DNA of 64,000 nt from a virus (IMGVR_UViG_3300028909_000001), one strand, 5' to 3'; counted from the stretch's first letter, positions 30,825 to 46,686 are shown. The notes: generated by a model not told the origin, from the letters alone. Translations and numbers: made by a program.

Positions 30825-31733
30825 ATGCAAAAGATATCGTTTGAAGATAAATTTAAGAACTATCTTCGTGCTAGTTATCCCATCCTTTGGATCAGGACTC
30901 ACGAAGAAAGCAGAGTAACCAGAAGTATCATTAATGCGGTTGCTGATGCTAAACAAATAACCATATATAGTTGGGATTGTAAGAGATTGTTGGAGAAATA
31001 TGTTAAAAATGCTGACAAGTCTGTTATTAACAACTTTGAATCCGTTAAAGGTGGTGTTGGCACAAGTACAGGACCTAATGCAGGACCCAAGGATTATGGC
31101 CTGACTAATGCAATTGAGAGCATTAAAGCGTTGCCTAATGGAACTGGACGGAATATTATCATTATGAAGGATTTCCATCCTTATATTGAAGCTCCTGGGC
31201 AAGTCCGGCCTATTCGTAATGCCATTGATGATTTGAAGTGTAAGGGAAATATGTTGGTGTTTATATCTCCTATCATTAAGATTCCTGTAGAGTTGGAGAA
31301 GGAGATTCAAATTCTGGATTTCCACCTCCCTGATGAAAAGCAATTAGAGGGTATTTTAATGTCCGTAGTAGCCATCTTTAATAAAAAGAATGAGGAGAAG
31401 GGTGAGCCGGAAAAGAAGATTGATCCTGACATTAAGCAAGCTACTATTGAAGCTCTGAAAGGACTTACATTTAGTGAAGCTCATGATGCAGTAAGTTTGG
31501 CTATTATTGAGAATCATGAATTTAATGCTTCTTTCGTCCTTAGTGTATTTAACGAGAAGGTTAAACAAGTCAAGCGTGGTGGTCAGTTACAATATCAACA
31601 ATCTGATATTACTTATGAGCATATTGGTGGTTTGGATGGCTTGAAGAAATGGACAGAAGTGAGATCTAAAGCTTATAGTCAGAAAGCTAGAGATTATCAT
31701 TTGCCGTACCCTAAGGGAGTTCTACTGGCTGGT
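30825..31733 (+). CDS. Ycf46-like AAA+ ATPase, exon 1
   Basis: LRASYPILWIRTHEESRV N-terminus, IMKDFH, DFxLP, and IGGLDGLKKW...PYPKGVLLAG ending just before the Walker A core. Confidence 0.88.
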
Positions 31734-32039
31734 GAATTAAATTGACGAATACCTTTGGTTATGGTAAATAATATATTCGTTAGTTTTTATGCCGGTCGCT
31801 CTAGTAATGGAGCGAAGCTTACAGCGGAAAAAATCGGGGACCCTATTAAAAATGAGGGAATCCGACCTGAAGGTTCTATAGATTATTCTATTTAACCAGG
31901 GGCAGAGCATAGTGGATGTAATAAGCCACCAAGAGACCGCTGCAACCTAGAAATAGGTTGAATATATATGCCGAACTATGTGCGTAAGATACTAAGCCAT
32001 AGAAGTAGAGGATAAAAAGCCTTTACGATAACAAAATTG
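31734..32039 (+). mobile_element. ORF-less group I intron (306 nt) in the AAA+ ATPase gene
   Basis: Exon 1 ends in U (GGT) and the intron ends in G (AAATTG). Removal restores GVLLAG-IPGTGKT. A P7-like pairing CAGAGCATA / TATATGCC is present. Confidence 0.82.
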
Positions 32040-32807
32040 ATACCAGGAACAGGGAAAACAGCAATTGCCAAAGCCACTGCAAATCAGTTTGGCTTTCCGT
32101 TGTTTCAGTTAGATATAGGAAGTTTATTTGGTAAGTATGTGGGTGAAAGTGAGGAAAACTTCCGTAGAGTAATTGAAACAGTTGATAGTATTGGACGGTG
32201 TGTGTTGTTCATCGACGAAATTGAAAAAGGTCTGAATCGTAATGCAGTATCTGGTGCTGGTGACTCAGGTACATCTTCTCGTACGTTTGCTACACTATTA
32301 AGTTGGTTGAGTGATCACAAATCTCCCGTATTTGTTATAGCCACCACTAATGATCATACTAAACTCCCACCCGAGTTTATTCGTAAAGGCAGGTTTGATG
32401 ATGTATTCTGGGTCGACTTGCCTACACTAGCTGAGAGAATATCGATCTTTGATGTGTTAATTAAGCGGTATTTTCGAGAGCCAGCCAAGTATAACCTGGC
32501 TAAACTTGCTGAGAAGACTGAAGGTTTTACTGGTGCTGAAATTGAAGAAGTTATCAAAGGTGCCATGTTTAACCGGTTTGATAAAGATGGTAAGGAATTC
32601 ACTAACACTGACTTGCTGGATGAGATTAACAGTACTCAACCAATCAGCGTTACGTCCAAAGTTGATATTGATGCTATGCGGGAGAAGGCGGTGGGCAAGC
32701 TCAGAGTTGCTAGCGTTAGTGGTTCAGTGAAAATGTTTACCATGGATGAAACTAAGCGAAGAACTGAAGGTAACGGTGAAGACAGAGCGTTAGATCCGTT
32801 TAACTAA
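32040..32807 (+). CDS. Ycf46-like AAA+ ATPase, exon 2
   Basis: IPGTGKT (Walker A), LFIDEIEK (Walker B), ATTND sensor 1, RKGRFD arginine finger and GFTGAEIE. Confidence 0.92.
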   Translation: MPGTGKTAIAKATANQFGFPLFQLDIGSLFGKYVGESEENFRRVIETVDSIGRCVLFIDEIEKGLNRNAVSGAGDSGTSSRTFATLLSWLSDHKSPVFVIATTNDHTKLPPEFIRKGRFDDVFWVDLPTLAERISIFDVLIKRYFREPAKYNLAKLAEKTEGFTGAEIEEVIKGAMFNRFDKDGKEFTNTDLLDEINSTQPISVTSKVDIDAMREKAVGKLRVASVSGSVKMFTMDETKRRTEGNGEDRALDPFN

Positions 32808-32813
32808 AAATAT

Positions 32814-32842
32814 GGGGAAGCTAGCATTAAACTAGCTTCCCC
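32814..32842 (+). terminator. Intergenic hairpin
   Basis: GGGGAAGCTAG-N7-CTAGCTTCCCC. Confidence 0.7.
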
Positions 32843-32851
32843 TATCTATTT

Positions 32852-33262
32852 ATGGGAATGTTCGATCAAATAAAATGCAAATATCCATTACCAGTCACTG
32901 AGTTTCAAAATACTACATTTCAAACCAAAGATACTCCTGCCCAAGCTTGTGATTTATACGAGATTAGGGAGGACGGCACACTTTGGTATGAGAATTATGA
33001 TCAAGAAGATCAGAGTGAACGAGGTATATGGATTAAAAATCATCCTGACCAAGAACCTCCAGAAGAATTAAAGGGGTTGCGAGGATTCATAGGTTGTGGT
33101 GCCAAGGTTAATAGACGGTGGGAACAAGTTATTTTTACCGGAGAGATTTGTTTTTATGAAGCTCTTGGAAAAGATTATACTGGTTGGATAGAGTTTTCCG
33201 CCTACTTCGAAAACGGAAAAGTGGTAAGACTTAATCTTATAGCACATAAAAAACCTGATTAA
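32852..33262 (+). CDS. Conserved phage hypothetical protein
   Basis: MGMFDxIxC...FQTKD...FTGEIxFY...WIEFxAxFxxG pattern recalled from phage hypothetical proteins. Confidence 0.7.
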   Translation: MGMFDQIKCKYPLPVTEFQNTTFQTKDTPAQACDLYEIREDGTLWYENYDQEDQSERGIWIKNHPDQEPPEELKGLRGFIGCGAKVNRRWEQVIFTGEICFYEALGKDYTGWIEFSAYFENGKVVRLNLIAHKKPD

Positions 33263-33264
33263 TT

Positions 33265-34251
33265 ATGAAGAATGTAGCATTGCCTGATTTGGAGAAACGG
33301 ACTAGAAACTTATTTCAATCAGGAAAATTAGTACAAGTACATGTCAGTAAATGGAGTATGATGGTAGGAGCAGATACCAAGGATTTAGGAATCGAGGAAA
33401 AAGATAGTAAAATCCCGGCATTTGTGACTATTGGAAAGAAAGCACTTTTTACTGATGAAGTTAGGTTGGTTTTTTCAAGAATAGAATCGGCAGCCAGGGC
33501 ATACTTGATCCACAATTCACATCAATATCCAATAGCTGATGCTCATTTTGTCCCCACCAAGCTGTTAGAGAAGGTTAGTATAGAATTGGATAAGTACCGA
33601 GCCGAGTTTTTCAAGCAAGTTGATAATCTTATTACTAATTACGAAGTATACAAACAACAAATGCTGGACAAGTACCCGGATTATGAAGATAATCTGTTAC
33701 CTTGTTATCTACCTATAAGTGAAGTTAGAAGCAGGTATAATTTTAGCATAAGTTTGTATGAAGTAGCATTTCCGAAGAAGATGGATAAGGTGACAAGGAC
33801 GGAAATTATTGCTCAAAATTTAGCAGCTGAAAAGGCCTCAGCTAAATATGAGGCACTAATGAAAGAACAATATCAGCATCATTTAACGCAAATGGAATCC
33901 TTTCTTAAAGAGAGTACTTTGGCGTTGCGTGGTGAGATAGTAAAGACTTTCGAAGTGATGGCGCAAAAGATACAAAATAGAGAAGTTATTTCTGGTGCAA
34001 ATTTAAAGACAATGAAGGCAGCTATTGATAGTTTTGATGCCTTGGATTTTCTTGATGACCAGAAAGTTAAACAAAATCTGGCTATTGTAAAGAAGTTGAT
34101 TAGTTCTGGAGCTGATTTTAAATCAGACGCTGAGATTGTGCAAAGGCTTAATACAGCCATTAATACTACCCTTGAAACTGCAAAATCCATTAGTGATATT
34201 GACACCTTGACCGGTGAGTATACTAGAAGATTGGATTTTGATGAACTATGA
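33265..34251 (+). CDS. DUF3150-like protein
   Basis: GKKAL...FSRIESAARAYL...FVP....V..EL.....EF......L..NY pattern. Confidence 0.55.
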   Translation: MKNVALPDLEKRTRNLFQSGKLVQVHVSKWSMMVGADTKDLGIEEKDSKIPAFVTIGKKALFTDEVRLVFSRIESAARAYLIHNSHQYPIADAHFVPTKLLEKVSIELDKYRAEFFKQVDNLITNYEVYKQQMLDKYPDYEDNLLPCYLPISEVRSRYNFSISLYEVAFPKKMDKVTRTEIIAQNLAAEKASAKYEALMKEQYQHHLTQMESFLKESTLALRGEIVKTFEVMAQKIQNREVISGANLKTMKAAIDSFDALDFLDDQKVKQNLAIVKKLISSGADFKSDAEIVQRLNTAINTTLETAKSISDIDTLTGEYTRRLDFDEL

Positions 34252-34254
34252 ATT

Positions 34255-34617
34255 ATGGTAATATTTGAAGGAATGCCATACCCGTTAGATATGGTATATA
34301 TTAAGTTGGCAGGTAAGACAGAAATTGTCAGTATTCCACTTTTTGAAGCAGTGGCAATTCTAAATAATGCTTCTTTTGATTATAACGGTAGTAAGGCAAA
34401 ATCAATAGAAAAAGGAGTTGAAACTTATGTCTTTAAAGGTGATACTAGTAAGGAAAAGAACAAGGTATTCGTAGTGCCTAAAGAAAAGCTTAGAATAACG
34501 TTAGAAGCAGATATTTACGATAACAACAAAGCAGATAGAATAACAGATTTAGCTATACAACCAATGGATGAGTTGTTGGTTAATGAAGTAAAAAAATTAA
34601 TTGAAATTCAACAATAA
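34255..34617 (+). CDS. Hypothetical protein
   Basis: 120-aa ORF inside the operon. Confidence 0.6.
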   Translation: MVIFEGMPYPLDMVYIKLAGKTEIVSIPLFEAVAILNNASFDYNGSKAKSIEKGVETYVFKGDTSKEKNKVFVVPKEKLRITLEADIYDNNKADRITDLAIQPMDELLVNEVKKLIEIQQ

Positions 34618-34635
34618 ACAACACATAAATAACAT

Positions 34636-35028
34636 ATGTCACACACTGTAAAAATCAACACTCAATTCAAAACCGAATTCATGACCTCTTTTCAAAGAGC
34701 GCTTACACATTTCGGTTGGAAGATTGAAAACGACAGCAAAATCAACACTTATCCTAGTGACCCGGCTAGAAATGAGGTTTATCCAATGGTGGCCAAAAAC
34801 CCCAATAATGGATATGATATCGGAATGAAGTTGAACGAGACTACCGGAGAAATCGAACTGTACGGTGATTTCTATGATGGTAGCATCTCCAAGACTTTGG
34901 GTAGTAACTGTGAAGCATTGAAGCAGGAGTATGGTTGCTGTGTCATTGAAGACAAACTAGCTTATGAAGGCTATGTTGCGACCCGGCATGTCCAGGAAAA
35001 TGGCATTGTCGATATTTACGCTGAATAA
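34636..35028 (+). CDS. DUF1257/Ycf35-like protein
   Basis: MSHxxxIxT N-terminus, YDIG....GEIELYGDFY and LKQEY. Confidence 0.75.
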   Translation: MSHTVKINTQFKTEFMTSFQRALTHFGWKIENDSKINTYPSDPARNEVYPMVAKNPNNGYDIGMKLNETTGEIELYGDFYDGSISKTLGSNCEALKQEYGCCVIEDKLAYEGYVATRHVQENGIVDIYAE

Positions 35029-35031
35029 GCT

Positions 35032-35412
35032 ATGGTGAATACTGCTACACAGAAGCAGGGGCAGCAAGGAGCATGGGGTAATACTCATGCTCCTTCCAAG
35101 CCTTTACACAAAAAATATGAAGTTGGCCTGTCTGATAAGTTAAAGAGCAGGGTTGCTAATTTAATTCTTAATTACTTCTTGTTTGAACAGCCACCAGCAC
35201 AAAGTATTAAACTGGTTGACAATTCTTTGCGTCAATTAGATGAAGTTAATAATGTCTGGGCTGCTAGTGTACAAACAATAGTATATTATAAGAAGATAGC
35301 TCCTAGAGTACATACTTCTAGAGTAAGATTCCGCATCCTGTGTGAAAAAGATATCACTAACATCGAAACATCAAAAATTAACATCCACAAAAACCAAGTA
35401 ATATTTATATGA
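35032..35412 (+). CDS. Hypothetical protein
   Basis: 126-aa ORF inside the operon. Confidence 0.6.
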   Translation: MVNTATQKQGQQGAWGNTHAPSKPLHKKYEVGLSDKLKSRVANLILNYFLFEQPPAQSIKLVDNSLRQLDEVNNVWAASVQTIVYYKKIAPRVHTSRVRFRILCEKDITNIETSKINIHKNQVIFI

Positions 35413-35615
35413 ACAAACCAAAAATTCACTTCCAAATTGCCAAAGACGGTAACGTTACTGTCATGGACGTTAAGGGAGCAGGCACTAGTTGTCTGGAAAC
35501 TACTTCAGGTATCGAAAAGGCGTTGGGTATTGTAGACGAGAAGTCTCGGGCTACTAATGCCAGTGCTTATGAAGACCCTGAACAGATTAAACTCGAAAAT
35601 ACCATCACTGAATGA
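35409..35615 (+). CDS. DUF2997-like protein
   Basis: IHFQIAKDGNVTVMDVKGAGTSCLETTSGIEKALG. Confidence 0.75.
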   Translation: MNKPKIHFQIAKDGNVTVMDVKGAGTSCLETTSGIEKALGIVDEKSRATNASAYEDPEQIKLENTITE

Positions 35616-35839
35616 AAATTCGTGTAGGTACTGACGGTGTTATTTCTGCTGTCTATTCTGATAAGTTAATGAACATGAATCTGGGTAAATTGAAAGTTAC
35701 CAGAGCTAGTAATGTTGAGTTTAATGAAACTAGTCAGGAATGGGAAGCTAGAACACCTGAAAATGAGTTGATTGCTCATGGACCTAACCGGGATGCAGTG
35801 ATTAAAGAAGAAGTTAGAGTCATTGAATCTAGGTTGTAA
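35612..35839 (+). CDS. Small conserved protein of Ycf46-type loci
   Basis: IxVxxDGxIxAVYSD.L....LG.L...RASNVEF.....W...........R..AI.EE pattern. Confidence 0.6.
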   Translation: MKIRVGTDGVISAVYSDKLMNMNLGKLKVTRASNVEFNETSQEWEARTPENELIAHGPNRDAVIKEEVRVIESRL

Positions 35840-35845
35840 GTAGTA

Positions 35846-35880
35846 GAGGGAGGTAGGCATTTATTTTGTCTACCTCCCTC
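35846..35880 (+). terminator. Intergenic hairpin
   Basis: GAGGGAGGTAGGCA...TGTCTACCTCCCTC. Confidence 0.7.
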
Positions 35881-35893
35881 AATTTATATTCTT

Positions 35894-36340
35894 ATGAAAA
35901 TAACTAAAAGAGGTAATAGATGGTATGACGAAAATAATAATAGTTGGATAACTGAAGAATCAGCTACTCTATACTCACCTACCCTAACTAATTGTATATG
36001 GTGTAGAGATTGTAGTGATTGTATTAATTGTAGTTATTGTAGTCATTGTATTAGTTGTATTAGTTGTAGTGATTGTAGTTATTGTAGTGGTTGTAGTAAT
36101 TGTAGTAGTTGTAATAATTGTAGTCGCTGTATTAATTGTAGTAGTTGTAGTTATTGTGTTGATTGTAATGATTGTAGAGATTGTATTAGTTGTAGGTATT
36201 GTAGAGATTGTAGTTACTGTGAATCAATTTATGATCTGAGTAATAAGATAAGTTTTGCAGCCCAATTTAAGGATAGACAAGAACCAACTATTAGGGTGGA
36301 AATAGATATTAATGATAGAAAACTGGAACCAGATTTGTAG
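35894..36340 (+). CDS. Cys-rich (CxxCxxC)n tripeptide-repeat protein, paralog 1
   Basis: About 26 consecutive C-x-x units encoded by TGT-based 9-mers. Confidence 0.8.
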   Translation: MKITKRGNRWYDENNNSWITEESATLYSPTLTNCIWCRDCSDCINCSYCSHCISCISCSDCSYCSGCSNCSSCNNCSRCINCSSCSYCVDCNDCRDCISCRYCRDCSYCESIYDLSNKISFAAQFKDRQEPTIRVEIDINDRKLEPDL

Positions 36341-36355
36341 TATAGTTCTTTATTT

Positions 36356-37489
36356 ATGAGTGAAAAAATAGTATTTAATTTAAACAAACCCAGCCCAACT
36401 TTTATAGCTAGTGCAGATATTCATTTAGGTAAGAAATTGTATAATTTCCCTGAACTTGAAGAAGATTTACGAGATAATTTTGTGAGACTAGTAGAATTAG
36501 CTATTGAAAAAGATGTACGGTATTTAATTATTGCTGGTGATCTATTTGAGGATAATAATTATACCAAACCACATACTATAGCCTTCATAGCTAAATTAGT
36601 GGCAAAATTAGCCTTACATGACATTAAACTGATAGGAATTGCAGGAGATCATGATAAGCCCTTAAAAGGTGAAGCCTGGATAAGAATTAGTGATATTCTA
36701 CCAGTTACTATAGAACCATCTTTTACTGGATTGGACTATTTTGATTACTCTTATGTAACTGTCGATGAATTAGTTACAGCTCTTACAGGAGATAAAAATC
36801 CTGAAAATATTAAGTGGATTTTCCTACATTGTCAATTTCCACAGTTATTCAAGATGGCAGAACCCAAGAAACTAATAGATTTCAATAAACTTGAGTTATT
36901 TAAGAATTTCCCTAATTTACAAGGTATAATAGCTGGAGACATTCATTCCGGTCCTGAAACCAAGGCTTATGGTGTTAATAGAGAGGCTTATGTAGGTTAT
37001 ACTGGTAGTTTGGGTATAACGGATATAGCTGAGTCTAGAACTGTAAAGTCAGTGTTATATTGTGATGGAAAGAATCTAATTAGACTTCCATTCCAGCAAA
37101 GAAGAGCCTGGAAAGAAATTAATTTTCAAGGAGAGGCAGCTGTAAATTTTGATGTTTCAGCTGAGTTAGAATGGATAAATAAAGAAAAATTTAAACCAGT
37201 TTTGAAAATAAACTGGGACAATAATAGTGACCCTTATATAAATAAATTAACAGCCTTATATGAAGCGGCATTGGTTAAATTACAACAACATCCAATTGGT
37301 TCGTTAACAAATGATGAATGTGAAGAAGTACTGACTAGTCGATCAGATATTACTACTGACGTTAAAATTGAAAAAGCTCTACATTCTTGCTGTGATGGGG
37401 ATGAGGATTTATATACCTTATCTTTATCTTTGTTAAATAATGATGTCAAAGACACATTAGACCAATTTAAAGCCAAATATGAATTATGA
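36356..37489 (+). CDS. sbcD: SbcD/Mre11-like metallophosphoesterase nuclease
   Basis: ADIHLG, IAGDLFE, AGDHD and AGDIH motifs, upstream of an SbcC gene. Confidence 0.88.
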   Translation: MSEKIVFNLNKPSPTFIASADIHLGKKLYNFPELEEDLRDNFVRLVELAIEKDVRYLIIAGDLFEDNNYTKPHTIAFIAKLVAKLALHDIKLIGIAGDHDKPLKGEAWIRISDILPVTIEPSFTGLDYFDYSYVTVDELVTALTGDKNPENIKWIFLHCQFPQLFKMAEPKKLIDFNKLELFKNFPNLQGIIAGDIHSGPETKAYGVNREAYVGYTGSLGITDIAESRTVKSVLYCDGKNLIRLPFQQRRAWKEINFQGEAAVNFDVSAELEWINKEKFKPVLKINWDNNSDPYINKLTALYEAALVKLQQHPIGSLTNDECEEVLTSRSDITTDVKIEKALHSCCDGDEDLYTLSLSLLNNDVKDTLDQFKAKYEL

Positions 37490-37986
37490 GCAGGCCGGGT
37501 TATTGGAAAACAAAAGATGCTGGTGAAATACCTTATAGTATAATGGAAAATAGCCACGTTAAACATGCATTACGGTACTTACGCAAGACTATATTAGCTA
37601 CAGATACTAAGCCGAATTATAGAGTATATTGTGAAGGTAAGTTAATAGAGTTAGGAGAAGAAGCACAAAGAAGAGGTATAATTACTTCAGAAGATATAAC
37701 TACTGATGCATTAATGGCTCAGATAGAGGTGTGGCAAACTGAATGGGATAGTAGACGAACTGTGATGCCAGTTATACAAAGTTCAATTCATACTCCATCT
37801 AATATTGATTTAAGTAATATATTTAATACAATACCAACTCCTATTAGTATATATAAACCACGCATTTCAGTTATTATAGATGTGGATAAAGAGTTAAGTA
37901 GAGTGACTGGTTTAAGAATATACAACCCTAATAAAGAATATGATGAGGGAATGTTCATTAATAGGAGATTGGATATGGAACTATGA
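37486..37986 (+). CDS. Hypothetical protein
   Basis: N-terminal WKTKDAGEIPYSIMENSHVKHAL phage module. Ends RRLDMEL. Confidence 0.7.
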   Translation: MSRPGYWKTKDAGEIPYSIMENSHVKHALRYLRKTILATDTKPNYRVYCEGKLIELGEEAQRRGIITSEDITTDALMAQIEVWQTEWDSRRTVMPVIQSSIHTPSNIDLSNIFNTIPTPISIYKPRISVIIDVDKELSRVTGLRIYNPNKEYDEGMFINRRLDMEL

Positions 37987-38153
37987 ACACAGATGATTAT
38001 GATTTAATAGAACGGATTATTGTAGTAGGTGATCGACTAGTTAATTATATTGATTATCCTCCAGATAAATATGAAGCTAAAGCATTGGAAGATTGGAAAG
38101 AAGCTACTAGAATATTTAGATCAATTATAGAAGAAAATAAAAGAAATCTATGA
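37983..38153 (+). CDS. Small hypothetical protein (56 aa), not in the track
   Basis: ATG overlaps the previous stop and the stop overlaps the next ATG. Translates MNTDDYDLIERIIVVGDRLVNY...KRNL. Confidence 0.55.
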   Translation: MNTDDYDLIERIIVVGDRLVNYIDYPPDKYEAKALEDWKEATRIFRSIIEENKRNL

Positions 38154-38545
38154 CAATAACAAAAAGAGATAATAGATGGTATGATGAAAACAATAATAGT
38201 TGGAATACTGAAGAAGCAGCTACTATCTATTCACCTACTCTAACTAATTGTAGTAATTGTAGTGATTGTATAGGTTGTAGTGATTGTACTGATTGTAGTT
38301 ATTGTAGAGATTGTAGCTATTGTAATAATTGTAGTGATTGTAGTAGTTGTAGAGATTGTATTTATTGTAGTAGTTGTATTAATTGTAGTAGTTGTAGAGA
38401 TTGTAGTAATTGTAGAAGTTGTATTGATTGTAGTAGTTGTAGTAGTTGTAGTTATCATGGTGATTGGATTGATGATAAGAAATATATACCAGAAGTTAGA
38501 CCGTTTATAGATTGTAGAGATAGACTATTAGACCCTTATTTATGA
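38150..38545 (+). CDS. Cys-rich (CxxCxxC)n tripeptide-repeat protein, paralog 2
   Basis: N-terminus nearly identical to 35894 (ITKRxNRWYDENNNSWxTEExATxYSPTLTNC), followed by about 23 Cxx units. Confidence 0.8.
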   Translation: MTITKRDNRWYDENNNSWNTEEAATIYSPTLTNCSNCSDCIGCSDCTDCSYCRDCSYCNNCSDCSSCRDCIYCSSCINCSSCRDCSNCRSCIDCSSCSSCSYHGDWIDDKKYIPEVRPFIDCRDRLLDPYL

Positions 38546-42798: not shown

Positions 42799-43731
42799 AT
42801 GAACACAATATTGGAACAACAACTTAAGCTTAAATATAATAAGGTTAAAGTTAGTGGAGATTGGTTTTATATCCCTTGTCCTACCTGTGCACCTCATAAT
42901 AAGAATAAAATGAAAAGATATGTGCCAGCAAATGGATATAATAGTGGTTGTTTCATTTGCGGAATTAAACAGGATGTAGCAACTCTGGTAGATGGTTACT
43001 ATATACCTTCTAATCTAGTAATTGAAGAAAAGGAAGAAGTAAGAGAAATAAACCAACTATCTCTGGTTCTTCCATATAATCATGCTATTCCAGTCAATCA
43101 ATTAGCAGAAGATCATCCAGCAATTCAATTCTTGTATAAAGATGAATTGAGAGACCTGGATACTTATGCTAATGAATACAAGATAGTGTTTGTGCCGTTT
43201 GAAGGTGGTAGGAACTTTCATAATGGTAGAACATATATTACTAGTGCTGAGAGACTTATATTCCCGGTATACTTTAATAATAGTCTGGTAGGTTGGCAAA
43301 TGAGAAGTATTCCTGGTACTATATATGGTGATTTGCAAAATGTTGTAAAGTACTACCATCTATTTCATAAAGGTGATTACTTATATAACTATGACAATGC
43401 TAAAAAGTTTAAGCAAGTAATTGTAGTTGAAGGGGTTAAGAAAGCTTTAAAATTCCCTAATAGTGTGGCTACTTGGGGTTGTTGTATATCCAAGAATCAA
43501 TTAAAGTTGATACAAACCTGGCCGGAAGTAGTTATGTTATTAGATTCAGATAAGAATAATGACAATACGCAAAAGATGGCTAATAAGTTTGTTGATAACA
43601 TTAATTTAGGTGGGAGTTCCAAGGCCATAAATATAGATTTAGCAAAATACGATGCTTCTTCACCAGATGACTTACCTAAGGATATCTTGCAAGAAATAGT
43701 TGATAATGAATGGAGGATAAATGTACATTGA
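42799..43731 (+). CDS. dnaG: DNA primase (Zn finger + TOPRIM)
   Basis: CPTC...CFIC zinc ribbon, GWQMR, VVEG and LLDSD TOPRIM motifs. Confidence 0.82.
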   Translation: MNTILEQQLKLKYNKVKVSGDWFYIPCPTCAPHNKNKMKRYVPANGYNSGCFICGIKQDVATLVDGYYIPSNLVIEEKEEVREINQLSLVLPYNHAIPVNQLAEDHPAIQFLYKDELRDLDTYANEYKIVFVPFEGGRNFHNGRTYITSAERLIFPVYFNNSLVGWQMRSIPGTIYGDLQNVVKYYHLFHKGDYLYNYDNAKKFKQVIVVEGVKKALKFPNSVATWGCCISKNQLKLIQTWPEVVMLLDSDKNNDNTQKMANKFVDNINLGGSSKAINIDLAKYDASSPDDLPKDILQEIVDNEWRINVH

Positions 43732-44278
43732 AAATTCGAATACTGCTTTAATAGAGGAATTTTGCTATGAATTTGCTAAACAATGTAATTATGTGCTTAC
43801 TAAGAGTTTAAAAAGCCAGTTATATAATCCAGTTAGTAAAGCATTGGCTATTAGTAGAGAGTTAGAGGTAGAGCCAAAAGTCTATGTAGCAGCTCATGTC
43901 TATTTCTCTCCTTTATTAAAAGGTTATACTAAACTGACTCCAAATCAGCTGTATACTAGAGATTCCAAGACTTATGTTGAAGAATATCTTAAATTTGACA
44001 GACATATAGATAGAGAGTTTGAGACTCAATGTAGAATATTGGCTGAATGCCTGGATAATGGCTGGAAAGAAAGATTAGCTTTATTAAATTCTACTTTAGA
44101 CTTTTTACCCTGGTTTAGAGTATTAATATCTACGGAAAGAGATGAAGAAATTATTAGAGTATATAGTGATGTAGCTACTAATATGTTAAGAAATGATAAA
44201 CCTCTGCTAAACTATCTTAAGACAATTAAATCAGATAGTGGTCAGGGATTGGATTTTTCAAGGTTACCTAGATTATGA
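43721..44278 (+). CDS. Hypothetical protein between primase and helicase
   Basis: 185-aa helical ORF, translationally coupled to its neighbours. Confidence 0.65.
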   Translation: MYIENSNTALIEEFCYEFAKQCNYVLTKSLKSQLYNPVSKALAISRELEVEPKVYVAAHVYFSPLLKGYTKLTPNQLYTRDSKTYVEEYLKFDRHIDREFETQCRILAECLDNGWKERLALLNSTLDFLPWFRVLISTERDEEIIRVYSDVATNMLRNDKPLLNYLKTIKSDSGQGLDFSRLPRL

Positions 44279-46686
44279 ATGATACAAATTTTACTGAGCC
44301 TTTAACCGATGCTGATTTTTCGGAATTGTTGATTAGGCATATGCTATTATCTCCGGAAGTGAGTAATAAAGCTAAACAATTGAATATTGTAGGAGATGAT
44401 TTAGTATTGGATGATACTTATGGTAATCAAGTATATAAAGAGCTGGTAAATATCATTAATAGTATAGATGTTAGACCAGTGCCAGCTAATACATTGTTGG
44501 ATGGCTTAAAACATAAATTTGAGGATGGAACTTTAATTGATAGTTTAAAAGATAATACACTTGAACTATTTGAGTACTTCTATAATGCAGATAGGTTGTT
44601 GGAGAGTCCTGAGTTCTTTGATAGTAGATTGTTACCTTTCCTAAAGAATAGGAGGGCACAGAAGCTTATTAATAAGTATAGGGATGATGTTCATACCTTA
44701 ACCAGTGAATTAAATAAACTCAATTTAGATTTGGCTGGCGATTCTCCTATGAGCAGGCCTAGGGTGATGAATCCTTTTAGTAGTATCATATTCAAGACTA
44801 AGAGTAGTATGATAGGTACAGGTTTAAGTAAGCTGGATGAGAAGTTGGATGGTGGACTATTATCTAGTGAATATGCTATGTTGCTAGGATTTTCAGGTGG
44901 GGGTAAATGTCATGGAAAAGGTACTAAAATATTAATGTATGACGGTTCAATAAAGAATGTTGAAGATATTAAAGTGGGTGAATTACTAATGGGTAATGAT
45001 TCAACATCTAGAGAAGTACTTAGTTTGGCTAGGGGTAGTGAGCAAATGTATAAGGTAATTCCTGTTAAGGGGGAACCTTGGACTTGTAATGAATCTCATA
45101 TCCTTAGTTTAGTATGTAATACTCAATGTGGTTTTGGTTATCAATATGGTAAGGGAAATATAGTTAATATGACAGTTAAGGATTATTGTGCTCTAATAAG
45201 AACTAAGAAAGATTGTCTTAAATTATATCGAATTGGTGTTGATTATCCTGTTAAACCTTTGAATATGGACCCGTATATCTTCGGTTGTTGGATAGGAGAT
45301 GGAACACGAGCAGCACCGAAGATTACAAATACTGATCCAGAAATTATTAGTGTAATGATGGAATGGGCTAAAATCAATAAATATAAGGTCAGACAGTATG
45401 ATATTACTTATTGTTTTAGTAGAAAACCTGAAATAAATATATTTCGTAATGAAATAAAAAGAGCTAATGGTAATAATCAAAAGAGAATTCCTAGTGATTA
45501 TTTGATTAACTCTGAAAGTAATAGGTTGCAGTTATTAGCTGGTATTATAGATACTGATGGATATCTACATCATAACTTTTATGAAGTTGTAACTAAGTAT
45601 GAAGGTTTGAGTCAAGATATTCTTTATTTAGCTAGAAGTTTAGGGTTCGCAGCATATAGTTATCCTAAAATAGCTACTATGAAAAGAGAGGATGGATCAA
45701 TATACAGATGTAAAGTATATAGAGTTAATATAAGTGGACACGTAAATAAAATTCCATGTAAAGTTATTAGAAAGCGGGCTGGGATAAGACAGCAGATTAA
45801 AGATGTATTACATGTTGGTTTTACTGTTGAGCCTATAAACGATAGAGATTATTATGGTTTTGAATTATCAGGTAATCATCTTTATCTTTTGGGGGATTTT
45901 ACAGTAACACATAATACAGCTGTAGGTACTAATATGGTGGGTATATCTGCGGAAATGGGTAGAAAGGCGGTTTATATATCTTGTGAAGAGCATGAAGATG
46001 ATTTAAGCCAAAGATTCTATTCCAGAGTATTTAGAATACCATATAGACAATTAAGACAAGGTAGTGCTAATATAGAATTGGAATCAAAGTTTAATGAAGA
46101 ATTAACTACTGAGAAAATAAAATTTTTAAAAGATAATCTCTGTTTAATGGGTTTAAAGGGGATTGATGGTGCTATAACTCCTAATCTGCTATATGAATTG
46201 TTAAAACAAAACTATGAAGAAACTGGTTTTATACCAGAACTAGTAATGCTAGATCAATTACAATTCATAACTCCAGATGCACCTATAAGAAAGAATATGC
46301 AGACTTATGAGATTGAAGGTATGACTGCAGCTGAGTTAGACCAATTATCACATAAACAAATAGGTGGTAAAGGATTTGTATTGTGGGTACAGCATCAAGC
46401 TAAAGGCAAGACTAGGGCATATTTTACTATAGATGAAATTCAAGGTTATAAAGCAATAGTAAATAAGCCAGACTTGGTTTTAGGTGTAGGCAGAGCTGGT
46501 GATAAAAGTGATGAGATAAACTTGTTTCCTTTAAAAATAAGACATTCAGCTGACTTTAAAATAACTCTTAAGACTGAATTTGAATATATGACAGTAACAT
46601 CCACGTTAGTTACTAATGACTTACCATATCAAAATTCTACCATGACAGAAGTAGATCGTACTGGTATTAGACCAGTCACTTATTAA
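44275..46686 (+). CDS. dnaB: Replicative DnaB/gp41-like helicase containing an intein
   Basis: LDEKLDGGL, GFSGGGK^T Walker A, YISCEE, MLDQLQFI and VQHQ. Confidence 0.9.
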   Translation: MNDTNFTEPLTDADFSELLIRHMLLSPEVSNKAKQLNIVGDDLVLDDTYGNQVYKELVNIINSIDVRPVPANTLLDGLKHKFEDGTLIDSLKDNTLELFEYFYNADRLLESPEFFDSRLLPFLKNRRAQKLINKYRDDVHTLTSELNKLNLDLAGDSPMSRPRVMNPFSSIIFKTKSSMIGTGLSKLDEKLDGGLLSSEYAMLLGFSGGGKCHGKGTKILMYDGSIKNVEDIKVGELLMGNDSTSREVLSLARGSEQMYKVIPVKGEPWTCNESHILSLVCNTQCGFGYQYGKGNIVNMTVKDYCALIRTKKDCLKLYRIGVDYPVKPLNMDPYIFGCWIGDGTRAAPKITNTDPEIISVMMEWAKINKYKVRQYDITYCFSRKPEINIFRNEIKRANGNNQKRIPSDYLINSESNRLQLLAGIIDTDGYLHHNFYEVVTKYEGLSQDILYLARSLGFAAYSYPKIATMKREDGSIYRCKVYRVNISGHVNKIPCKVIRKRAGIRQQIKDVLHVGFTVEPINDRDYYGFELSGNHLYLLGDFTVTHNTAVGTNMVGISAEMGRKAVYISCEEHEDDLSQRFYSRVFRIPYRQLRQGSANIELESKFNEELTTEKIKFLKDNLCLMGLKGIDGAITPNLLYELLKQNYEETGFIPELVMLDQLQFITPDAPIRKNMQTYEIEGMTAAELDQLSHKQIGGKGFVLWVQHQAKGKTRAYFTIDEIQGYKAIVNKPDLVLGVGRAGDKSDEINLFPLKIRHSADFKITLKTEFEYMTVTSTLVTNDLPYQNSTMTEVDRTGIRPVTY
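44908..45915 (+). mobile_element. Intein (336 aa) with a LAGLIDADG endonuclease domain
   Basis: Starts CHGKGTKILMYDG and ends VTHN followed by T. Contains PYIFGCWIGDG and LAGIIDTDG. Confidence 0.95.

Follow-up and report, generated by a model that had tools for sequence, protein, structure and literature searches.

The gene block and its shared C-terminus

The viral DNA analysed here, a single stretch of 64,000 nucleotides from the uncultured large phage IMGVR_UViG_3300028909_000001 (the window), corresponds to positions 80898-144897 of a 151-kb viral record (G000) for which CheckV gives a completeness of 69%. Our subject is a short C-terminal sequence, R-x-L-[DE] plus a few residues (hereafter the tag), which recurs on proteins of different families encoded in one interval of the window. 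This interval is a conserved gene block adjoining the divergently transcribed large terminase gene. Its first half comprises, in order, a two-piece AAA+ gene, a gene for a 136-residue protein, the DUF3150 gene, a gene for a 120-residue protein, the DUF1257 gene, a gene for a 126-residue protein and the DUF2997 gene; the second half continues with genes for a 75-residue protein, the Cys-x-x repeat protein 1, an SbcD-like phosphoesterase, proteins of 166 and 56 residues, the Cys-x-x repeat protein 2 and an SbcC-like ATPase. Downstream of the block lie a helicase, a DnaB-like helicase with an intein and a family A polymerase with a UDG-like domain.

Five C-termini carry R-x-L-[DE] three or four residues from the end, exactly as the original prediction had read them (all genes on the + strand, window positions). 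The first is that of the AAA+ ATPase (Ycf46/Cdc48-like), whose putative exon 1 (30825-31733; phrog_8638 profile positions 21-312) encodes a degenerate D1-like domain up to the GVLLAG of Walker A, and whose putative exon 2 (32040-32807) encodes the active D2 (PF00004, E 1e-30), the lid (AAA_lid_3) and a tail, predicted to be disordered, ending in DRALDPFN (codons 32781-32804). The DUF3150 protein (33265-34251; PF11348, E 2e-10) ends in TRRLDFDEL (codons 34222-34248), the Cys-x-x repeat protein 1 (35894-36340; phrog_15341) in DRKLEPDL (codons 36314-36337), the 166-residue protein encoded between the SbcD-like and SbcC-like genes (37486-37986) in NRRLDMEL (codons 37960-37983) and the Cys-x-x repeat protein 2 (38150-38545; phrog_15341) in DRLLDPYL (codons 38519-38542). 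The same prediction had called the five proteins unrelated, with bodies from four families. The four families stand, namely AAA, DUF3150, the phrog_15341 pair and the 166-residue protein, for which no Pfam or PHROG family was found; the count of five unrelated proteins does not, the two Cys-repeat proteins being paralogues (49-67% identity). If Ile is allowed for Leu, the 75-residue protein of the module (35612-35839) provides a sixth tag-like end in the interval, RVIESRL (codons 35816-35836), which matches R.[LIM][DE]..[LI]$; its orthologue in the related record G002 is 67% identical, and the last 14 residues are identical.

Across the whole 151-kb record the tag is far above background. In a greedy set of 199 open reading frames (ORFs), 13 proteins match R.L[DE].{2,4}$ against 0.15 expected, the expected count being taken from the internal tetrapeptide frequency (12 R.L[DE] in 47,745 residues); since a C-terminus is fixed by its stop codon, the count does not depend on the choice of start codons. 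The strict form R-x-L-[DE]-x-x-L is found at 11 C-termini and nowhere internally, and in a blind count of C-terminally anchored residue triplets the tag motif topped the list, with 11 observed and 0.056 expected. It also ranks first among the C-terminal patterns of three related records. All-against-all BLASTP sorts the 13 tagged proteins into eight families (five Cys-repeat paralogues, one paralogue pair and six singletons), and the eight bearers outside the window are encoded at record positions 74.3 kb and 145.8-150.5 kb. The original prediction had not noticed the tag at the ends of structural or dNTP genes, and indeed 0 ORFs are tagged in the structural block (record positions 1-73 kb).

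The tags vary within limits. Position 4 is Pro in 5 of the 13 tags, some tags read x-L-x-L-x-L (KLELDL, KLEIDL, RLELEL, KLDLEL), and the ends are P-Y-L in two tags, P-F-N in the ATPase and [DE]-L in most. The small bearers look cytoplasmic, and in them no hydrophobic segment follows the tag. All five Cys-repeat paralogues of the record (the other three at record positions 74342-74737, 146332-146799 and 149988-150512) are tagged and match phrog_15341, a family of unknown function; each begins with a conserved stretch of 35 residues, after which comes a (Cys-x-x)n array whose length varies, and no homologues were detected in G001, G002 or G004.

Codon usage within the tag separates peptide from DNA. 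The conserved Arg is encoded by AGA, AGG, CGG and CGA, the two Leu positions by five and three codons and the Asp/Glu position by all four, in proportions typical of the genome. Among non-paralogous bearers, DNA identity is 0.62 in the 21-nucleotide tag, 0.32 in the 42 nucleotides before it and 0.31 in the 33 nucleotides from the stop codon onward, compared with 0.27 for random sequence; within the tag, third codon positions are 48% identical and first and second positions 85%. Because synonymous codons vary and the DNA likeness ends at the edges of the tag, selection acts on the tag peptide. In 5 of the 13 tagged genes the stop codon overlaps the next start as ATGA, and translational coupling of this kind may favour the last Leu codon, although it cannot explain the other tag residues, and the terminal Leu is found also where a gene has no overlap with the next one.

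Ancestry and concerted change of the tails

The tag was traced among homologues of its two best conserved bearers. R-x-[LIVM]-x-[LIVMAF] is present in the last 14 residues of 94 of the 113 AAA+ homologues (83%), which are 41-75% identical and annotated at source as SpoVK/Ycf46/Vps4 family, compared with 3.8% of other 14-residue windows; in a 76-sequence alignment the tail Arg is nearly invariant. Most of the 54 DUF3150 homologues (36-100% identity) end in TG-x-Y-x-R-[RK]-[LI]-[DE] plus 0-5 residues, with Tyr (Y319) and Arg (R321) invariant in an alignment of 27, and a tail of the R-x-Φ-x-Φ type (Φ, hydrophobic) was found in 72% of DUF3150 homologues against a background of 1.9%. The tail is kept in orthologues down to 42% identity, which bears out the conservation that had been asked of a genuine signal. 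Taken together, these alignments indicate that the tag is ancestral on the AAA+ and DUF3150 proteins and no free invention. AlphaFold2 gave predicted local distance difference test (pLDDT) values below 50 for residues 323-328 of the DUF3150 protein and for residues 537-554 of a 554-residue orthologous ATPase (mean of the latter model 89.5), and both tails are predicted, from this low model confidence, to be disordered.

The folds of the two proteins differ in how much they resemble described structures. Foldseek aligned about 580 columns of the ATPase to the D1-D2 tandem of Rix7, p97, Cdc48, NVL and AFG2 (E 1e-21 to 1e-19), and a profile search of PDB sequences ranked the Cdc48/VAT D2 top for its D2. 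As the alignment runs over the tandem, the first half is a degenerate AAA-like domain, and a classical substrate-binding N-domain is lacking; Pfam finds AAA only in the second half, the D1 being without recognisable ATPase motifs. For the DUF3150 fold, Foldseek against the PDB returned nothing at E ≤0.001, and the matches in the ESM Atlas were other viral DUF3150-like models only.

Relatives of the block were reached through an alignment of homologues, which was needed as single-sequence searches fell short: blastn of the region against cultured phages gave short chance matches only, and the DUF3150 protein alone found no IMG/VR locus and no tblastn match in cultured phages. Set side by side, the tails of each genome resemble each other. 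In this phage the AAA+ and DUF3150 proteins end in DRALDPFN and TRRLDFDEL, and the others in R-[KR]-L-[ED]-x-[DE]-L. In G001 (DUF3150 64% identical, G+C 42%) the corresponding ends are NRRLDEKFS and TRRLDTEGI, and 11 further ORFs match a relaxed pattern; nine of these are small (84-117 residues), mostly with ends of the form R-[RQN]-L-D-[TP]-x-L, whereas RIMDPQQ, on a 299-residue protein, looks like a chance match. Thr or Pro stands at position 4 in 9 of the 10 strict G001 tags. G002 has DRKVTVDDL on the AAA+ protein, RRLDVGDDL on the DUF3150 protein and ERNVTLSL and DRNLSFEL on others, the latter on a homologue of the 166-residue protein (28% identity), and a 186-residue ORF at the equivalent position in the locus L002 ends in ERNISFEL. 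In G004 (42% identical, G+C 53%) the ends are LRSIAI and RRIEV, with RRIEL and RRISL on others, four proteins in all. Two further loci have basic tails, RKIKT (L035) and RKVKT (L036) on the AAA+ protein and RKIKV on the DUF3150 protein of both, with RRKIKI on a 60-residue protein of L036.

Three features therefore move together within a genome, namely the hydrophobic residue, the residue three after Arg, which may be acidic, neutral or basic, and the extension length, across lineages with G+C contents between 35% and 53%. In the record of G001 no homologues of the small tagged proteins of this phage were detected, nor the reverse; each lineage has therefore put the tail on proteins of its own.

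Full-length relatives of the ATPase were also found by tblastn in Cluster O mycobacteriophages and in one Rhizobium phage. In Mycobacterium phage Catdawg (NC_022057; loci L032/L033) the AAA ATPase gp97 ends in RVLDL, and [NV]-L-D-[FW] occurs within the last ten residues of the endonuclease VII gp9, the HNH protein gp27, gp28 and gp95; such tails number 5 against 0.13 expected, for a pattern chosen after looking. Catdawg also encodes a DnaN clamp, gp80. The genome paper on Cluster O does not mention these tails (PMC4351075). As a separate observation, in Rhizobium phage vB_RleS_L338C (KF614509; L034, 19779-30427) the AAA+ protein ends in RAGMSLDS, the product of the next gene in RRAVKL and that of gene 060 in ERKLRVEVA, and, judged by these ends, this second cultured phage may have tail-sharing partners too.

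Two of the untagged genes of the block belong to a recurrent module. A Ycf46-type AAA+ protein, DUF1257 and DUF2997 are encoded together, in a gene order kept in G002, G004, L001, L002 and L036. The DUF1257 (Ycf35-like) protein of 130 residues (34636-35028), whose homologues carry PF06868 and whose synteny is kept in G002 and G004, is untagged, as is the DUF2997-like protein of 68 residues (35409-35615; phrog_23133), whose positional orthologues carry PF11211 and whose alignment holds about 30 small homologues. A unit of 65 residues related to the latter was seen in 4-11 tandem copies in giant metagenome proteins of 1,200-2,200 residues (P0194, P0196, P0197, P0210 and P0226), and from these arrays it may be a repeatable binding unit.

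The AAA+ gene is split, independently of the tag, by an insert of 306 nucleotides (31734-32039, + strand) that interrupts Walker A at the junction GVLLAG / IPGTGKT. The two ORFs on either side of the insert match contiguous phrog_8638 profile positions (312/313), and exon 1 is 67% identical to the uninterrupted 554-residue orthologue of G001. A LAGLIDADG ORF lies at the same site of the AAA+ gene in relatives (L001 8518-9303, L002 7410-8228), and an Rfam search of the insert at gathering thresholds matched no family; the insert is probably a group I intron without an ORF. Another LAGLIDADG homing endonuclease (Hom_end_hint, Hom_end) was found in the intein of the DnaB-like helicase gene (44275-46686), an intein absent from the orthologues of about 500 residues in G002 and G004. 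A protein of 185 residues (43721-44278) ends in LDFSRLPRL; a candidate counterpart is the 164-residue protein at the same position in G004 (154503-154997), ending in ELRRIEL with the tag of the G004 lineage.

A proposed docking tail for the AAA+ module and competing readings

The observation was thus confirmed and extended, and among the readings considered the best supported takes the R-x-L-[D/E]-x-x-L end for a portable docking tail by which proteins are directed to the AAA+ module. We put this forward tentatively; on the sequences it may well be correct, with a chance that we place a little under even. In the Cdc48/p97 family, cofactors are recruited through short peptides, one of them the C-terminal tail of the ATPase itself. 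By the proposed mechanism, the original bearers would be the Cdc48/p97-like (Ycf46-type) AAA+ protein and the adjoining DUF3150 protein, with R-x-Φ-x-Φ on flexible C-terminal tails, and in this lineage the same tail would have been placed on many small, unrelated and fast-turning-over proteins, the Cys-repeat proteins and the 166-residue protein among them. One reader would bind all of these tails, probably as extended strands whose alternate hydrophobic residues sit in a groove, and this reader would travel with the module, either as the ATPase ring (for example its degenerate D1-like half) or as the DUF1257/DUF2997 partners. In this way the unfoldase would receive tagged proteins, whether as adaptors, regulators or substrates.

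The idea of a terminal docking or assembly signal, present already in the original prediction, is supported by the selection on the peptide, the conservation in orthologues, the low-confidence tails and the concerted change between lineages. For its second part, that the tag is read by the AAA+ ring or by a partner, support is indirect, in that the AAA+ family's own conserved tail is this very tag. The candidate readers encoded with the module are, from its gene content, the ATPase, DUF1257, DUF2997, DUF3150 and three small conserved proteins. Co-folding of the tail-less orthologous AAA+ protein (residues 1-536), DUF1257 and DUF2997, each with its alignment, against the last 40 residues of the 166-residue protein gave a score of 0.00, which was counted neither for nor against binding. 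Since the tail swaps charge between lineages with necessarily different hosts, a reader travelling with the module appears likelier than a conserved host pocket such as that of the beta clamp.

Covariation gave no more than a lead, in the N-terminal half of the ATPase. When 101 AAA+ homologues were sorted by the charge of the tail residue three after Arg, the most charge-complementary columns of the body lay in the D1-like half (positions 15, 43, 59, 62 and 97 of P0055), their charge, acidic or basic, being opposite to that of the tail, with same-sign differences nearly as extreme.

Several points weigh against a docking tail for the module. The tree offers only 3-5 well-supported independent contrasts, and a sign test is therefore powerless; the complementary columns in the N-terminal half cannot be distinguished from an effect of common descent and are a lead, no result. 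The concerted changes likewise represent few independent evolutionary events, the basic-tail lineage forming one clade of the ATPase phylogeny. Set against the client consensus, the DUF3150 tail is the better match and the AAA+ tail of this phage, DRALDPFN, the poorer one. The tails could instead be read by a conserved host protein, and those of Catdawg cannot discriminate docking to the module from binding to a clamp, because Catdawg encodes DnaN.

The strongest competitor, in our estimate unlikely, takes the tail for a degron or timing signal read by host ClpXP, ClpAP, Lon, FtsH or a tail-specific protease, by which early proteins would be removed after use. The position of the tail at the extreme C-terminus, on low-confidence and probably flexible segments, would suit a degron, as would its presence mostly on small proteins of unknown function encoded in arrays typical of early or accessory regions, and the versions of different lineages could reflect different hosts, given the spread of G+C. 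Yet the motif is kept on long-lived-looking AAA+ and DUF3150 proteins across distant phages, including those of Mycobacterium and Rhizobium, and a tail that swaps charge (D/E to K) would be unexpected where the pockets of the host readers are conserved. Known bacterial C-degrons are, moreover, nonpolar (ssrA LAA) or basic (MuA-type), unlike R-x-L-[DE]-x-x-L.

Binding to a sliding clamp, with the tail tethering proteins to replicating DNA through the host clamp, is in our view distinctly improbable. The resemblance of the x-L-x-L-x-L tags to QLxLxL, the place of the tagged core genes among recombination and replication genes, and the DnaN of Catdawg, a phage with similar tails, all speak for it. 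Gln, however, is found in 0 of the 13 tags, and the Pro or Thr at position 4 recurs here and in G001; the RKIKT, RRIEV and RSIAI of related lineages are no clamp motifs. In the three related records G000, G001 and G004 (62-83% complete), where clamp, peptidase and PDZ domains were looked for, no DnaN N- or C-domain was found, the host clamp lying outside this search, and the gp45-like clamp PF09116 gave no match above cut-off. The sole matches to phrog_168 (clamp loader) were to the Ycf46-like ATPase itself. The polymerase of this phage is of family A, and such polymerases, as in T7, usually work without a clamp.

A third reading, to which we give little credence and which we place just behind the clamp, is that the tails bind each other or DUF3150 and co-assemble into one body (a hub, scaffold or condensate), for which neither a separate reader nor the ATPase would be involved. 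Strands in which charged and hydrophobic residues alternate (R-K-L-E-L-D-L) could pair, the DUF3150 tail comes closest to the client consensus, and concerted drift is what one would expect where tails recognise tails; the all-basic RKIKV, RKIKT and RRKIKI, on the other hand, cannot pair by charge, and the motif is just about 5-7 residues long, on low-confidence segments. That the tail might direct proteins to a compartment or into the virion (as capsid cargo, for secretion or to a membrane) seems very improbable: shared terminal peptides do sort cargo in encapsulins and T4 heads, but here no protein of the structural block is tagged, and the bearers are an ATPase, proteins of the recombination module and small, cytoplasmic-looking ones. 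Lastly, the notion that the shared end is a by-product of DNA events (a recombination joint, a mobile 3′ cassette or translational coupling) without any peptide function is close to refuted, since the ATGA overlaps in its favour would merely make a terminal TTA or CTA Leu codon more likely, while the flanks are near random, synonymous codons are many and the peptide is kept in relatives that differ by up to 18 G+C points.

If the docking reading is carried further, the phage would possess a private, tag-directed network in which a Cdc48-like unfoldase acts with DUF3150, DUF1257, DUF2997 and a changeable set of small proteins (13 tagged proteins in this record), these being adaptors that deliver host targets or substrates, and the orphan Ycf46/Ycf35 module, present in bacteria, cyanobacteria and plastids, would be explained by the same logic. 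This wider proposal is doubtful at present, though possible. Shared docking tails are known for few hubs, namely sliding clamps, ClpX, p97 and proteasome activators, and we found no description of an uncharacterised AAA+ family whose own tail has been copied by a phage onto a sizeable share of its small genes. If the docking reading is right, it would offer a first handle on the function of the widespread Ycf46/DUF1257/DUF2997 module and a sequence rule by which dozens of phage proteins now called 'hypothetical' could be grouped as a single functional network. Cluster O mycobacteriophages would then be a cultured and genetically tractable place to examine the idea, and Catdawg, with its own DnaN gp80, would suit setting docking to the module against binding to the clamp.

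Comparison with known docking systems

Among the closest known systems is p97/Cdc48, whose C-terminal tail is bound by cofactors with PUB or PUL domains. Shared with it are the tandem D1-D2 fold, a D2 of the Cdc48/VAT type and a low-confidence tail with a conserved short motif. The tail of p97, in contrast, ends in Leu-Tyr-Gly and not in R-x-Φ-x-Φ, and the ATPase described here has no N-terminal cofactor-binding domain and, in its D1, no recognisable ATPase motifs. No PUB or PUL partner is known for the phage ATPase, no search aimed at such domains having been made. To our knowledge, copying of the tail onto many other proteins has not been described for p97.

The XB tail of SspB, which docks on the N-domain of ClpX, is comparable in that a C-terminal peptide of Arg plus hydrophobic residues, of the strand type and on a flexible linker, brings an unrelated protein to a AAA+ unfoldase; for the phage tails the strand and the linker are predictions. 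The reader in ClpX, however, is a zinc-binding N-domain, and Pfam finds none in the phage ATPase, whose N-terminal 245 residues are modelled as a degenerate AAA-like domain. The two systems differ also in that no peptidase partner was found in the three related records and in that far more proteins are tagged here. Searches of these records for phage-encoded proteasome/HslV (PF00227) and ClpP (PF00574) gave no match, and no PDZ domain was found in them.

With the ends of gp43, gp33 and gp55 of T4, and with the bacterial clamp motifs QL[SD]LF and QLxLxL, the tag has in common a short C-terminal peptide present on unrelated phage proteins. In T4 this peptide of the gp45 clients is read by one hub, the clamp. 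The phage tags differ in that no clamp or loader was found in the three incomplete records, in that they lack Gln, and in having Pro or Thr where the clamp pocket needs Leu.

In the HbYX/GQYL tails of PAN, Rpt, Mpa, Bpa and archaeal Cdc48, a C-terminal tail of a AAA+ ring serves as docking key, as is proposed for the phage, and in mycobacteria such a tail is common to two different activators. The original prediction had drawn analogies to HbYX, ssrA and encapsulin targeting peptides, none of which holds as a membership. The hydrophobic-Tyr-X end is found in only 2 of the 13 tags, and no 20S, HslV or ClpP was found in the three records. Degrons of the ssrA type have nonpolar ends, whereas the tags are charged at -1 and -3, and no peptidase ring was found that would make the AAA+ protein a protease. 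Nothing points to an encapsulin-like shell.

Closest in gene content is the neighbourhood of Ycf46, Ycf35 (DUF1257) and DUF2997 in cyanobacteria and plastids, where the same three families stand side by side, and to which the phage version adds DUF3150 and the large set of tagged small proteins. In the papers searched on this module we found no function, partner or tail motif, and in those on DUF3150 and on shared C-terminal motifs of phages no description of the tail. The tag behaves like a docking tail common to the clients of a single hub; as it fails one or more defining features of each family compared here, the R-x-L-[DE] tail is set apart from them and tied to the Ycf46-type AAA+/DUF1257/DUF2997 module.

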